In this document: one piece after another, positions 30,196 to 34,942 of the stretch
How positions within the stretch are numbered: the first letter of the stretch is position 1
Layout of the letters: each line of letters opens with the position of its first letter
From: Thiosocius teredinicola
Lineage (GTDB): Bacteria; Pseudomonadota; Gammaproteobacteria; Chromatiales; Chromatiaceae
Length of the DNA stretch: 64,000 nt
Assembly: GCF_002009425.1 (NCBI RefSeq)
Contig: NZ_CP019936.1
Location: forward strand, 1,721,297 to 1,785,296
Reading direction: 5' to 3'
Program-made: the position numbers and the translations under genes
The notes under the pieces: model-generated
What the model was told of the DNA's origin: nothing
Database searches by the model: none
What the model saw: only the letters and a program-made list of their open reading frames with translations

Positions 30196-30432
30196 AGGTC
30201 GCTGGTGTAACGGTTAGCACATCGGCCGGTCAGGAAAGCGTTGGTGATTCTGGGCAGATTGAGAAGTGTTCGAAACAGACTGAATCAAGGCGCGAATCGC
30301 GCGTAATAGCGAGCTATTGCGAAGATTCGTAACGCTTAGTCGGTTTGTTTCGAGCGCTTGGCAACTGACCACGAATTGCCAACGCTTTCCTCAAGCCGAA
30401 AGGTACAGGTTCGAATCCTGTGCGACCTACCA
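30196..30432 (+). tRNA. tRNA-Asp(GUC)-like gene interrupted in the anticodon loop by a 158-bp insertion (putative disrupted or unusually processed tRNA)
   Basis: 5' half: acceptor aggtcgc, D-arm gtgt-aacggtta-gcac, anticodon stem tcggc. 3' half ~165 nt downstream: gccga, variable aaggt, T-arm acagg-ttcgaat-cctgt, acceptor gcgacct, then a + cca. All four stems are fully complementary. Removing the insert and one TCA copy restores a 7-nt loop cggtcaa with anticodon GUC. Confidence 0.6.
30233..30390. mobile_element. 158-bp MITE-like insertion with 12-bp perfect terminal inverted repeats (GGAAAGCGTTGG...CCAACGCTTTCC) flanked by a 3-bp TCA direct repeat, inserted in the tRNA anticodon loop
   Basis: The TIRs are exact reverse complements. 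TCA is duplicated on both flanks. The interior contains a 7-bp hairpin (ttggcaa...ttgccaa). No coding capacity. Confidence 0.55.
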
Positions 30433-30436
30433 GACT

Positions 30437-30513
30437 GCGCTCATGGCCAAATGGATGAAGGCACCCGGTTGCGAACTGGGAGATTCCGGGTTCGAGTCCT
30501 GGTGAGCGCGCCA
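30437..30513 (+). tRNA. 77-nt cloverleaf tRNA with anticodon GCG (Arg-decoding) but a Ser/Leu-type D-arm (3-bp GCC/GGC stem, 11-nt loop) and a short variable loop; a non-canonical tRNA
   Basis: Acceptor gcgctca/tgagcgc, then g and an encoded CCA. Anticodon arm cccgg-ttGCGaa-ctggg with U33 and A37. T-arm ccggg-ttcgagt-cctgg. Flanked by a 10-bp inverted repeat cagactgcgc/gcgcagtctg. Confidence 0.6.
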
Positions 30514-30647: not shown

Positions 30648-30825
30648 GGGTTATCCGTCGGAAACAAACGTGAAGCGCGGAGAACGCATCGTAAACAAAG
30701 ACAAGGAACTGCTGGAAAAATTGGGTCGGAACGATCCGTGCCCGTGCGGCTCGGGCCGTAGGTTTCAAGCAGTGCTGCCTCGAAAGGAAGTCCTTTCGAC
30801 AGCAGTGATCGCAAGGATTACGTAA
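30631..30825 (+). pseudogene. SEC-C-motif (YchJ/SecA C-terminal zinc-binding motif) small protein gene with an apparent +1 frameshift inside the metal-binding motif
   Basis: Translation reaches ...[21 protein letters not shown], then reads QAVLP... A 1-nt shift after ttt-c restores [13 protein letters not shown]-stop, matching the consensus CPCGSGKKFKKCC. Confidence 0.5.
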
Positions 30826-30854
30826 GAGATTGAAGGGCGGGTCGTATTGGCGCT

Positions 30855-31015: not shown

Positions 31016-31089
31016 CTGGATATAGCTCAGTTGGGTAGAGCAATCGCCTTACACGCGATCAGTCAGAGGTTCGAATCCTCTTATCTAGA
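31016..31089 (+). tRNA. tRNA-Val(UAC)
   Basis: Acceptor ctggata/tatctag (one G-U pair), D-arm gctc-agttgggta-gagc, anticodon arm atcgc-ctTACac-gcgat, T-arm agagg-ttcgaat-cctct, discriminator A. CCA is not encoded. Confidence 0.8.
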
Positions 31090-31095
31090 CCTGGA

Positions 31096-31429: not shown

Positions 31430-32572
31430 ATGATGATGTTCAAGCATTTTGTGGTCGCTCAGCACGAACGCGCCTTGCTGTACCGTGACCGTCAGTTGGT
31501 CGCCGTGCTTGCACCGGGCGTACACCGCTACTTCGACCCGACCGGTCGGATTTCGGCAACTGTGTTCGACCTGTCGCAGACCGAATTCGCGGATGCCAAC
31601 GCGGACCTGTTGATGAAGACCTCGGGCGACTTGCTCGACGGTTACCTGATGCAGGTCTTGATGGGTGATCACGAGGTCGGCCTGGTGTACCGCGACGACA
31701 CCTTCGTTACGGCATTGGCGCCGGGCGAGCGCAAGGTGTTCTGGAAGTTGCCGCACCAGTTGCGTGTTGAACGCGTTGCGGTCGACACCGAGCTGCAGGT
31801 GGCCAAGCAATTGGTCGATGCGATTGTGCGTACCAAAGGTGGCGTCGTGTCGCGTGCATTGATGCCGTTCGTCTACAGCGCCGAAGTGGCGGACAACCAG
31901 GTTGGCCTGTTGTTTGTCGACGGTGAGATGGCACAGGCATTGAAGCCGGGTTATTACGTGTACTGGGCGGTCAAACGCCGTGTGGTGGTTGAGCCGTACG
32001 ATACCCGTATCCAGGCCATGGAAGTGCAGGGCCAGGAGATCCTGACCCGCGACAAGGTGTCGCTGCGGGTGAACCTCGGTGCACAGTACCGTGTGGCCGA
32101 TGCGGTGAAGGCACGCGCTGATCTGCAACAGCCGATCGAATGGCTGTACCGTGAACTGCAGTTTGCGTTGCGCCAGGCGGTGGGTTCGCGCGATCTCGAC
32201 AAACTGTTGGAAGACAAGGAACGTGTCGACCACGAAGTGTTCGAGAAGGTGGTGGCCACGGCTGCAGAGCACGGTTTCGATCTGCGTAGCGTGGGTATCC
32301 GCGACGTCATCCTGCCGGGTGACATGAAGGATATCCTGAACCAGGTCGTGCAGGCCGAAAAAGCCGCTCAGGCGAACGTCATCAAGCGACGTGAAGAAAC
32401 GGCAGCGACCCGTTCGCTGTTGAACACGGCAAAGCTGATGGACGAGAACCCGACCTTGCTGCGCCTGAAAGAGTTGGAAACGCTCGAGAAGGTGACCGAG
32501 AAGGTCGATCGCCTGACCGTGTTTGGTGGTCTCGACGGCGTGTTGAAAGACACGGTCAAGATCAATGTTTAA
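31430..32572 (+). CDS. SPFH/band-7 (stomatin/flotillin-like) domain protein without a predicted TM, with a C-terminal coiled coil
   Basis: Start at the internal ATG MMMFKHF with an AAGGAGAAG Shine-Dalgarno. SPFH-like core VSLRVNLGAQYRVADAV. C-terminal Glu/Lys/Leu-rich helices. Confidence 0.7.
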   Translation: MMMFKHFVVAQHERALLYRDRQLVAVLAPGVHRYFDPTGRISATVFDLSQTEFADANADLLMKTSGDLLDGYLMQVLMGDHEVGLVYRDDTFVTALAPGERKVFWKLPHQLRVERVAVDTELQVAKQLVDAIVRTKGGVVSRALMPFVYSAEVADNQVGLLFVDGEMAQALKPGYYVYWAVKRRVVVEPYDTRIQAMEVQGQEILTRDKVSLRVNLGAQYRVADAVKARADLQQPIEWLYRELQFALRQAVGSRDLDKLLEDKERVDHEVFEKVVATAAEHGFDLRSVGIRDVILPGDMKDILNQVVQAEKAAQANVIKRREETAATRSLLNTAKLMDENPTLLRLKELETLEKVTEKVDRLTVFGGLDGVLKDTVKINV

Positions 32573-32653
32573 CGTTAACCCGCCCGGTCGTTGTGGTTCG
32601 CCACACGCCGGGCACAAACTCAATGGAAGACAACAGGACGAGGGAGAAGAACG

Positions 32654-33853
32654 ATGCCTGTTAAACATACCCTGAACAAGGGCAAGGTGCCGGTACATAT
32701 CTGGACCGAGGATGCCGAGTCGCAGGCGATGACGCAGTTGGCGAACATCGCGCAGCTGCCGTTCGTGCATCACCACGTGGCGGCGATGCCGGATGTGCAT
32801 GCGGGTATCGGTGCAACCGTCGGTTCGGTGATCCCGACCAAAGGCGCGATCGTGCCGGCGGCCGTTGGTGTGGATATCGGCTGCGGCATGAACGCGCTGC
32901 GTACCTCGCTGAAGGCCGAAGACCTGCCGGAGAGCCTGCGTCGCGTGCGAAACGCGGTCGAGGCGGCAATCCCGGTCGGCTTTGATATGCATAAGAACGA
33001 TCCGGTGAAGCGATCGACCATCACGCCGATGGCCAAAGGCCTGGACGTGATCATCGACAAGCATCCGGCGCTTGCGCGTATGCAGAAGAAGCGTCCGTAC
33101 GATGTCTGGGTGCGTCAACTGGCGACACTCGGCGGCGGCAACCACTTTATCGAGCTGTGCCTGGACGAGGTGGGTGATGTCTGGATCATGTTGCACTCCG
33201 GTTCACGTGGAATCGGCAACATCATCGGGCGCTACTTCATCAACCTGGCGCGACACGATATGGGTGACCAGCTGGGCCGACTGCCCGACAAAGATCTGGC
33301 GTACTTCACCGAGGGTGCGAAGCACTTCGAGGACTATGTCGAGGCGGTGCATTGGGCGCAGGACTACGCGATGGTCAACCGTCGGGAAATGATGCGCTCG
33401 ATCATCTCGGCACTGGAGAAGTATCTGCCGCCGTTCACGATCACCAAAGAGGCGATCAACTGCCACCATAACTATGTGGCACGTGAAACCCACTTCGGTG
33501 CCGACGTGTACGTAACGCGCAAAGGTGCGATCCGGGCCGGCGAAGGTGAGCTGGGCATCATCCCGGGCTCGATGGGCGCCAAGTCGTACATCGTGCGCGG
33601 TAAAGGCAATGCCGAGTCGTTCTGCTCGTGTTCGCACGGCGCGGGCCGACGCATGTCGCGTAGCAAGGCGAAGAAGCAGTTCAGCCAGACGGACCTGGAA
33701 CACCAGACCGAGGGTGTTGAATGTCGCAAAGACAGCGGGGTGATCGACGAGATCCCCGGTGCCTATAAAGACATCGACGTGGTAATGGCGAACCAGACCG
33801 ACCTGGTTGAAGTGGTACACACACTGAAACAGGTGCTGTGTGTGAAAGGCTGA
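32654..33853 (+). CDS. rtcB: RNA-splicing ligase RtcB (3'-phosphate/5'-hydroxyl nucleic acid ligase)
   Basis: Conserved motifs MPDVHAGIGATVGSV, GGGNHFIEL, HSGSRGIGN, NCHHNY and SHGAGR. Start at the internal ATG with a GGAGAAG Shine-Dalgarno. Confidence 0.9.
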   Translation: MPVKHTLNKGKVPVHIWTEDAESQAMTQLANIAQLPFVHHHVAAMPDVHAGIGATVGSVIPTKGAIVPAAVGVDIGCGMNALRTSLKAEDLPESLRRVRNAVEAAIPVGFDMHKNDPVKRSTITPMAKGLDVIIDKHPALARMQKKRPYDVWVRQLATLGGGNHFIELCLDEVGDVWIMLHSGSRGIGNIIGRYFINLARHDMGDQLGRLPDKDLAYFTEGAKHFEDYVEAVHWAQDYAMVNRREMMRSIISALEKYLPPFTITKEAINCHHNYVARETHFGADVYVTRKGAIRAGEGELGIIPGSMGAKSYIVRGKGNAESFCSCSHGAGRRMSRSKAKKQFSQTDLEHQTEGVECRKDSGVIDEIPGAYKDIDVVMANQTDLVEVVHTLKQVLCVKG

Positions 33854-33894: not shown

Positions 33895-34110
33895 ATGGAA
33901 GCAAAAGCAATGGCGAACAAGACCAACAAGGCAAGAAACCTGTTGCACAACCACCCGATGATGAAGAAGGGTGGCGTGCATCAGAAATCGAACAAGGCAC
34001 AACGTAAAAAGGAGAAAATGGCGCTGCGCAAGGCGTGGTTTTCTCCGAGTGCAGCCATGTCGGCTGTATTCGGAGAAGACCGTGCACGCATTGACATGGT
34101 TCATTGTTAA
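33895..34110 (+). CDS. small highly basic hypothetical protein (71 aa)
   Basis: ORF within listed 33838..34110, after the terminator. Lys/Arg-rich (KARNLLHNHPMMKKGGVHQKSNKAQRKKEKMALRKAW). Lower-GC region. Confidence 0.35.
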   Translation: MEAKAMANKTNKARNLLHNHPMMKKGGVHQKSNKAQRKKEKMALRKAWFSPSAAMSAVFGEDRARIDMVHC

Positions 34111-34223: not shown

Positions 34224-34589
34224 ATGCCATGGCAATACAGTCAGAGTACTGGAGTACTCACAAGGGATGGGCGCGTAGTCGGAACCGGCTATTCGGGAGC
34301 AGCTGGCGTTGGGCGAAACAATCCAGATGCCGAGCGACTGACTGACGTGGGTCCGATACCGCGAGGTCAGTATCGAATTGGGGCTCAATATTCGCATCAG
34401 TCGAAAGGGCCCGTTACTATGGCGTTAAATCCCGTCAATCACTCAGCGCATGGTCGAATGCATTTTCTCATTCACGGAGACAGTATCCGGAATCCCGGCA
34501 ATGCTTCTCAAGGTTGTATTATTCTTCGGCGTGATATCCGAGAACGTATTGCCAACAGCGGTGATGCAGTTTTGGAGATTGTGAGATGA
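34224..34589 (+). CDS. Tlde1-like/DUF2778-type L,D-transpeptidase-fold toxin domain protein
   Basis: The motif HFLIHGDSIRNPGNASQGCIIL matches the His...Ser-x-Gly-Cys catalytic signature of YkuD/Tlde1 L,D-transpeptidase domains. Low-GC islet. GGAG Shine-Dalgarno. Confidence 0.6.
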   Translation: MPWQYSQSTGVLTRDGRVVGTGYSGAAGVGRNNPDAERLTDVGPIPRGQYRIGAQYSHQSKGPVTMALNPVNHSAHGRMHFLIHGDSIRNPGNASQGCIILRRDIRERIANSGDAVLEIVR

Positions 34590-34942
34590 CCCGTTTGTCT
34601 ATAGCGATCGTGGTGCTGACACTGTTTTCTAGTCCAGCGGTCGCCGACCCGGATTGTACTAGCCCCGATGCTTGGCCGGCCGGTATGGCGTTCACGCATC
34701 TGAAGAACGCGGGGTTGGTGACCAACTACAACTTGGATTTCGATAAAACGACCGTAACCCGATTGGCATCGGAAAGAGTGGGTGACGACCTCTATCGCCA
34801 GATTCACAGAGTGTCGTTTGTGAGAAAGTCTGGAGCAAAACTCGAAGCAATTACCGTCAATGATGCGTCGAATGAAGAGTGTTCCATGTCGGGCGTCGAC
34901 GTTTATGTCATCGAGAAGATGCTAGGCGACTTCAGCTCATAA
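34586..34942 (+). CDS. periplasmic immunity-like protein (signal peptide), translationally coupled to the upstream toxin-like gene
   Basis: ATGA overlap with the upstream gene. Signal peptide MTRLSIAIVVLTLFSSPAVA. Small soluble domain. Same low-GC islet. Confidence 0.55.
   Translation: MTRLSIAIVVLTLFSSPAVADPDCTSPDAWPAGMAFTHLKNAGLVTNYNLDFDKTTVTRLASERVGDDLYRQIHRVSFVRKSGAKLEAITVNDASNEECSMSGVDVYVIEKMLGDFSS

Follow-up and report, generated by a model that had tools for sequence, protein, structure and literature searches.

An accessory tRNA-Lys-type gene probably disrupted by a palindromic mobile element upstream of the Band-7 and RtcB genes of Thiosocius teredinicola

INTRODUCTION

Bacterial MITEs and palindromic repeats, such as Correia/NEMIS, ERIC, and the Rickettsia palindromic elements, are small, have inverted ends, and carry no open reading frame (ORF). 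The whole element can form a hairpin, filled and empty sites occur sporadically, and copies are found in both orientations. In the case of the Rickettsia elements, copies also lie within genes, including RNA genes and coding sequences. Inserts in tRNA genes are known as well: bacterial group I introns occupy the anticodon loop of genes for tRNA-Leu (UAA), tRNA-Ile, and tRNA-Arg, and the archaeal and eukaryal introns with a bulge-helix-bulge (BHB) motif are processed by EndA and RtcB. In 23S rRNA, intervening sequences are sporadic extended hairpins at helix tips, which RNase III removes without re-ligation.

RtcB is also at home in bacteria beside accessory tRNAs. Published tRNA arrays are linked to rtcB and regulated together with it (PMC8421152), and a preprint (10.1101/312249) sets out the concept of a b7a-tRNA/Band-7/RtcB locus, at which tRNA-like RNAs are proposed to serve as repair cofactors. 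The accounts of these RNA-repair and tRNA-array loci that were available to us, the original 2016 description not among them, do not mention an insert of the kind that we describe here.

We analyzed a 64,000-nt stretch of DNA (the window) from Thiosocius teredinicola, a shipworm symbiont and gammaproteobacterium related to Sedimenticolaceae and Thiodiazotropha, together with loci collected for comparison (L numbers). The window holds a tRNA gene interrupted by a palindrome, and it touches on each of the systems above. The insert is like the MITEs and palindromic repeats in its small size, inverted ends, lack of an ORF, whole-element hairpin, sporadic filled and empty sites, and two orientations, and like the Rickettsia elements in having copies within an RNA gene and a coding sequence. 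With the group I introns it shares an anticodon-loop position. With the BHB introns it shares a 37/38-compatible position, a helix that extends from the anticodon stem, and a nearby RtcB gene, and with the 23S rRNA intervening sequences it shares the form of a sporadic extended hairpin at a helix tip. The b7a-tRNA/Band-7/RtcB loci, the YrlA/Rsr/RtcB loci, and the rtcB-linked arrays have the same setting of accessory tRNAs, a CCA-less tRNA, Band-7, and RtcB.

RESULTS AND DISCUSSION

A tRNA gene is split in its anticodon loop

Two tRNA halves on the forward strand of the window surround a 158-bp palindrome with perfect 12-bp ends, as an earlier note on this DNA had described. The 5' half (positions 30196 to 30232), delimited by sequence and by intron-aware ARAGORN, comprises the acceptor strand, D arm, 5' anticodon stem, and the loop letters c-ggtca; the 3' half (30394 to 30432) comprises a38, the 3' anticodon stem, variable loop, T arm, acceptor strand, A73, and an encoded CCA. 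Sequence inspection revealed that all of the tRNA stems, the T loop, and the encoded CCA are intact. In the acceptor stem, aggtcgc (30196 to 30202) pairs with gcgacct (30422 to 30428), and in the anticodon stem, tcggc (30222 to 30226) pairs with gccga (30395 to 30399). The D stem is gtgt/gcac, the T arm reads acagg-ttcgaat-cctgt, and the gene ends with A plus CCA, the last base being 30432. A TCA stands on either side of the palindrome on the forward strand (30230 to 30232 and 30391 to 30393).

This gene (30196 to 30432) was missed by standard ARAGORN and by the Rfam tRNA model. With introns allowed, ARAGORN recovered it over the full interval as tRNA-Asp(gtc) with a 161-nt intron, i(37,161). 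The tRNA-Leu(UAA) gene of L149 (9707 to 10047, minus strand), interrupted by 254 nt where group I introns classically lie, served as a positive control for intron-aware calling. The fold of the 237-nt RNA of the window gene has an energy of -122.9 kcal/mol, compared to a mean of -73.8 ± 4.4 kcal/mol for shuffled sequences (z = -11). Intron-aware calling also returned two tRNA-like genes with short inserts unrelated to the palindrome, at L156 8331 to 8445 (32 nt at 37/38) and L006 2292 to 2395 (14 nt). These may be degenerate genes or ARAGORN over-calls.

The interrupted tRNA is of the Lys type

Which tRNA was interrupted? The two halves were fused computationally, and the product was set against 569 tRNAs from the loci collected here. 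Each of the six best matches of the 569 was a tRNA-Lys(UUU) gene without an insert, found at the corresponding place in its locus, and the joined tRNA was 87 to 91% identical over 64 to 76 nt to tRNA-Lys(UUU) of L001, L196, L006, and L114. The gene order, with a Lys-type tRNA followed by an Arg-type tRNA, b7a-tRNA, Band-7, and RtcB, is common to the window and L196. The discriminator base of the interrupted gene is A73, which under the standard identity rules suits Lys; Asp identity uses G73. The tRNA-Asp identity put forward in the earlier note is contradicted by these matches and by A73. An intact tRNA does exist at the same position in relatives, but where that note had proposed to look for tRNA-Asp, it is tRNA-Lys(UUU). 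Sequence and position thus point to an accessory, array-type tRNA-Lys(UUU) as the ortholog of the interrupted gene.

The Asp call derives only from letters at the junction. Uninterrupted Lys relatives have the anticodon loop CTTTTAA, and in the window gene, the TTTT (U33 to U36) has become GGTCA-(158 bp)-TC. Because GGTC replaces TTTT, the GUC anticodon is junction sequence. The loop restored by excision would read CGGUCAA, with a G at position 33 and without U33. A clean insertion does not account for GGTC in place of TTTT.

The insert has homologs at other sites

The palindrome (158 bp, 30233 to 30390) is the one-hairpin form of a twin-hairpin family, and the forward strand is the one that folds well. 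Its left terminal inverted repeat, GGAAAGCGTTGG (30233 to 30244, forward strand), is the outer 12 bp of an arm of ~31 nt, and the right repeat, CCAACGCTTTCC (30379 to 30390, forward strand), is the exact complement of the left end. With one mismatch allowed, the 12-mer has only two matches in the 64 kb, and in a repeat search, the arms were the longest inverted repeat of the window. Between the arms lies a conserved structured core (30264 to 30359, forward strand; CAAGGCG ... AAUAG-loop-CUAUUG ... AACGC). We built one covariance model from the window rod (R1) and one from the 97-nt core (R2) and ran both over the collected loci; the window core scored 97.5 bits with R2. MAFFT aligned the rods of the window and of L006 poorly, and model-based alignment was used instead. 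An early DNA pattern scan of viral contigs gave chance matches only.

In the window, the element occurs once (64 kb searched, filters off), and copies do exist in other genomes: approximately nine further sites hold one, with both orientations and a variety of contexts represented. The homologous cores, in unrelated contigs, have E values of 1e-13 to 1e-23. None of the copies contains an ORF; their content is hairpins only. Rfam 15 has no family that matches the element (window copy at E ≤ 10, eight other loci at E ≤ 0.1), a BLAST search of plasmids and phages with the rod as query gave no match, and a domain search found no transposase domain in the ORFs that flank the window copy or in eight ORFs of L202. 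We know of no partner transposase for this family.

Full-length copies span 264 to 269 bp and consist of two hairpins joined by a mini-hairpin, with inverted ends of 31 to 32 bp that lie 200 to 207 nt apart. In L161, L167, L173, and L202, these 31- to 32-bp ends are 88 to 97% complementary. The window and L006 copies are of the one-hairpin form, with 31-nt arms and one core. L202, a prophage-like contig from IMG/VR, holds a full 269-bp copy (1441 to 1709), whose 31-bp ends are 97% complementary. An S24 repressor-like gene and a DUF1376 gene flank this copy, which is far from any tRNA or RtcB. The L161 copy has two cores arranged tail to tail, and that of L033 is a weaker match. By sequence, the L116 copy is intergenic; the L173 copy is intergenic between b7a-tRNA and Band-7, and the L186 copy lies downstream of Band7. 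The copies of L116, L161, L173, and L186 are all outside called tRNA genes and outside Band7 and RtcB, the flanks in L161 and L186 being unannotated.

Four comparisons pair a filled site with an empty one. The window gene is uninterrupted in L001, L196, and L114 (Lys-type tRNA). In L167, the copy splits the D arm of a tRNA-Gln gene, of which L173 and L170 have intact counterparts. In L117 (1880 to 2027), the element interrupts the RtcB coding sequence, which is continuous in all the other RtcB genes; it starts exactly where homology breaks after LPDKDL, and since only 2 nt of contig follow the element, the near junction alone is visible. The fourth pair is L006, a MAG of the Chromatiales (RtcB identity, 81%), against L003, L004, and L008. 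Here the copy occupies the anticodon loop of a tRNA with another scaffold; the uninterrupted form is a "Leu-UAG" gene of 77 nt with the loop CTTAGAC, and the restored loop would be CCUAGAC, with C33 and without U33. On the basis of collinear lengths, the L006 insert had seemed to be a homolog in the same orientation. The covariance model (92 bits on the minus strand, at most 20.5 bits on the plus strand) and pairwise identity with the window insert (65% reversed, 54% in the same orientation) overturned this reading: the L006 copy is inverted. The homologs at approximately nine other sites, the four filled/empty comparisons, and the lack of an ORF lend weight to the earlier suggestion that a MITE-like element made this tRNA gene a pseudogene.

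Within the clade of the window (Band7 at least 65% identical to that of the window), only four lineages have the element, each at a different place. Among ~100 Band7 loci, tRNA-borne copies occur only in the window lineage and L006. In all, 3 of about 10 element-bearing lineages have it in tRNA loops, a point of difference from the MITEs and palindromic repeats; this recurrence suggests a target preference or selection beyond a simple insertion model.

The earlier note had also proposed that TCA is a target duplication. A TCA is present on both sides in the window, but no matching 3-bp repeat stands at L006, L161, L167, L173, L186, or L202. The element boundaries are uncertain, and the termini are poorly conserved between copies. 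Since it does not recur, the TCA repeat of the window may be a chance match (1/64 per site).

The conserved core folds with a strand bias

The most conserved part of the element is the internal core and not the termini. Across ten copies of the 97-nt core, pairing holds in 88.9% of cells, and compensatory changes are seen at 31 of 40 pairs. The covariation score of the core, in an alignment that had been fitted to the model, is 0.80, compared to 0.27 for shuffles and 0.11 to 0.17 for slid partners. In the loops, CAAGGC(G), AAU(A/G)G, and AA(C)GC are kept across genomes of 30 to 75% G+C. In the sense orientation, G-U cells outnumber A-C cells by 35 to 6. The rods fold with the same bias: that of the window at -89.4 kcal/mol versus -61.1 for the complementary strand, and that of L006 at -86.1 versus -65.0 kcal/mol for the opposite strand.

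These alignments clearly point to a core under selection to fold as a single strand, be it RNA or single-stranded DNA (ssDNA). In contrast to the MITEs and palindromic repeats, conservation lies in the 97-nt core rather than in the termini, and there is no consistent target duplication. Because the termini are poorly conserved, no fixed-length target duplication recurs, and the fold is strand biased, the element may be recognized, or may function, as single-stranded RNA or DNA. A covarying, strand-biased core is atypical of a passive DDE-type MITE and hints at a function at the RNA or ssDNA level. By eye, we set aside four other kinds of structured sequence: integron attC sites (R-box motifs are missing), retron noncoding RNA (no adjacent reverse transcriptase), IS200/IS605 ends (the hairpins are on opposite strands), and REP/REPIN (no GTAG/CGTC heads).

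Accessory tRNAs and RtcB are habitual neighbors

The genes of the locus are, in order, the interrupted tRNA, tRNA-Arg(GCG), a frameshifted small ORF, a CCA-less tRNA, Band-7, and RtcB. The accessory tRNA-Arg(GCG) (30437 to 30513, forward strand) lies 4 nt downstream of the interrupted gene, in the same tRNA-array remnant; its ortholog in L196 has ACG, the usual bacterial form. The small ORF (30672 to 30830) encodes a SEC-C metal-binding motif and is frameshifted, with CPCGSGRR in one frame and FKQCCL in the next. The CCA-less tRNA upstream of Band-7 (31016 to 31091, forward strand) was called Val(TAC). Band-7 (31430 to 32572, forward strand; PF01145, E = 4e-25) is a Band-7/SPFH "slipin family" protein of 380 amino acids, 100% identical to a T. 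teredinicola protein of that annotation, and 18 nt after it comes the RtcB RNA ligase (32591 to 33853, forward strand; PF01139, E = 4e-131). From the interrupted gene to RtcB the distance is 2.2 kb, in line with the 2 kb of the earlier note. PADLOC, run on Band-7, RtcB, and their neighbors, found no defense-system match.

A tRNA lies no more than 700 nt upstream in 82 of 104 Band-7 loci, and 75 of these 82 tRNAs are without an encoded CCA. Up to 24 tRNA genes are found within 5 kb upstream of Band-7. RtcB stands beside accessory tRNAs in ~100 loci that lack the insert. Because accessory tRNAs and RtcB are habitually linked, the proximity of RtcB needs no special explanation, and the earlier idea of a healed precursor that involves RtcB is not supported. 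A b7a-tRNA is a tRNA-like gene with a family-A scaffold, directly upstream of Band-7 and most often lacking an encoded CCA; this role is filled by the CCA-less tRNA at 31016 to 31091. The interrupted gene itself was considered for the role and rejected: its scaffold is different, it encodes CCA, and it ends 998 nt from the Band-7 start at 31430.

Several observations concern the tRNAs of these loci. The b7a-tRNA anticodon changes fast: it is TAC in the window and ATC in L112 (1805 to 1880) and L113 (975 to 1050), two loci that are ~98% identical to the window and in which the b7a-tRNA outside the anticodon is almost unchanged. Across the 82 loci, the Band-7-associated tRNA received 24 different anticodon calls, among them a stop anticodon and 4-nt loops. 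The arrays of up to 24 tRNA genes upstream of Band-7 occur in L121, L122, L126, L139, L156, and others; in L156, ARAGORN called up to 26 tRNAs in one locus. These arrays match the published "L-arrays" that are co-regulated with rtcB (PMC8421152).

Probable disruption by a mobile element and its alternatives

We consider it probable that a palindromic mobile element, belonging to a family not yet described, disrupted an accessory tRNA-Lys-type gene. The ancestral gene would have been a tRNA-Lys(UUU) from a tRNA array that had spread horizontally and of which a short remnant is left upstream of the b7a-tRNA/Band-7/RtcB module, and a small non-autonomous palindromic element would have inserted in its anticodon loop at the DNA level. 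The element would be the one-hairpin derivative of the 264- to 269-bp family, whose full copies combine two 31- to 32-nt inverted ends with two hairpins of ~97 nt, each bearing a conserved core that is selected for single-strand folding. Transposition would presumably occur at the DNA level by an enzyme acting in trans. The insertion could be tolerated because array tRNAs are redundant. Accessory tRNAs do decay here, as seen in the sister strain L112, in which the tRNA-Arg (~1239 to 1305) has lost 10 nt of its D arm and is now without a tRNA call. If transcribed, the window gene would yield a tRNA body with a rod of ~70 bp in place of the anticodon loop, which would be incapable of decoding. 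RtcB would be nearby through its habitual linkage with accessory tRNAs and not to heal the interrupted RNA.

Read as such, the locus would be a tidy example of a mobile element that knocks out a redundant tRNA gene. It also holds a lesson: junction letters are unsafe for naming a tRNA, and a nearby RtcB is unsafe for inferring splicing. A by-product of the analysis is an undescribed twin-hairpin element family, spread over 30 to 75% G+C, with a core clearly under selection for its single-strand structure. The family recurs in tRNA loops and around tRNA-array/Band-7/RtcB loci.

Could the chimera of tRNA and rod be functional as it is? It might resemble the bacterial Y RNA YrlA, which has a tRNA-like domain and a Ro-binding stem and is encoded next to rsr: a protein-binding rod on a body shaped like a tRNA could serve as a Band-7/RtcB cofactor, decoy, or sensor. 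The intact tRNA stems, T loop, and encoded CCA would fit such a role, as would the coincidence of the rod's best-folding orientation with the tRNA strand. The locus is of the type at which tRNA-like RNAs are proposed as repair cofactors (10.1101/312249). U33 is replaced in both of the tRNA-borne copies, and in L006, the change extends pairing into the rod. The interrupted tRNA body has also been kept intact in three strains: the window and L113 differ at 2.4% of positions overall and at 4 of the 237 positions of the interrupted gene, and no difference breaks a pair. However, the strain divergence (~2.3%) is too low to show constraint. Against a functional chimera, the L006 copy is antisense to its host tRNA, other copies occupy a coding sequence, intergenic DNA, and a prophage-like contig, and a tRNA-borne copy is present in only two lineages among ~100 Band7 loci. 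No YrlA or Y RNA matched in Rfam, and a Pfam scan of 17 ORFs from the 22.6- to 37.7-kb part of the window gave no Ro/TROVE match. Taken together, we regard a functional chimera as unlikely.

A further reading, to which we give a slim chance, is that the element is a mobile structured RNA module and not a passive MITE; its sense core would direct cleavage of the host RNA, be it a tRNA loop or the RtcB mRNA, with RtcB re-joining the ends. A weaker version would make the chimera of tRNA and rod a permuted, Y-RNA-like cofactor of Band-7/RtcB; compared to YrlA, the topology of the window chimera is permuted. If the core acts at the RNA level, it would link mobile elements with bacterial RNA repair, and if the module reading is true, it would represent a bacterial, protein-dependent, intron-like class in RNA-repair loci.

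Removal of the insert from the RNA, either by an endonuclease that cuts where the rod begins, followed by RtcB ligation as in archaeal tRNA splicing, or by RNase III excision without re-ligation, is very unlikely in our estimate. The earlier note had offered as its second option a precursor that is healed after the insert is removed. ARAGORN does place the insert at the canonical 37/38 position, a perfect 12- to 13-bp helix is stacked on the anticodon stem, and RtcB is 2.2 kb downstream. The copy inside the RtcB coding sequence would be harmless if spliced, the core is under selection for folding as a single strand, and twin-hairpin copies would offer one sense core to transcripts from either direction. 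A BHB motif cannot be drawn at either junction (there are no 3-nt bulges 4 bp apart); the window junction, 5' cggtca and 3' tcaa, is an internal loop of 6 nt and 4 nt around a continuous 12-bp helix, and the junction in L006 differs. Unlike the archaeal and eukaryal genes with BHB introns, the window gene has a bacterial host, no EndA-like gene among the flanking ORFs checked, and a restored loop that would be non-functional, and further copies of the element lie outside tRNAs and, in antisense orientation, in another tRNA.

In the Rfam 15 scan for ribozymes, for which the threshold was E ≤ 10 with the window copy and E ≤ 0.1 with eight other loci, Intron_gpI had no match to the insert at E ≤ 10, and in contrast to bacterial group I introns, the insert is a 158-nt unbranched rod with no P3-P9 core. 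Hammerhead, twister, hairpin, pistol, hatchet, and HDV-like ribozymes likewise had no match, the hits being tRNAs and chance hits only. Excision would leave the loop CGGUCAA, in which G33 and an Asp anticodon are combined with a body of the Lys type that has A73. The ends that RNase III produces, 5'-phosphate and 3'-OH, cannot be ligated by RtcB, and the linkage with RtcB is explained without the insert. In comparison with the 23S rRNA intervening sequences, the host here is a tRNA with a functional loop, and the element is also present in non-RNA contexts. The absence of a BHB motif, group I intron, or ribozyme at the searched thresholds, restored loops that lack U33, and the antisense copy in L006 speak against the healing of a precursor.

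The least tenable reading, that the palindrome arose by local chance (for example, replication slippage) or by assembly error and is not mobile, could draw on the single copy in the window and a TCA repeat that is possibly fortuitous, but it is in practice refuted by the identical or near-identical insert in two independent metagenome assemblies, L112 and L113, and by the homologous cores in unrelated contigs.

Other genes around Band-7 and RtcB

In relatives, a conserved ORF of 315 amino acids without a Pfam match lies between Band-7 and RtcB (L192 2166 to 3113, L195 2504 to 3451, L196 5424 to 6371, L199 5255 to 6202, L200 2171 to 3118, and L201 1509 to 2456); it is absent from the window. 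Directly after RtcB, the window has a very basic ORF of 71 amino acids (33895 to 34110), with a stem-loop (34033 to 34085) in its 3' part. By eye, this arrangement resembles that of ArfA, a ribosome-rescue factor with an RNase III hairpin; an ArfA-like assignment was rejected, as no Pfam or NCBIfam model matches. Farther on, at 34224 to 34942, an ORF with a Tlde1 domain (PF10908, E = 1.4e-13) overlaps at its downstream side with a small ORF that belongs to no family, and the two look like a toxin and its immunity protein.
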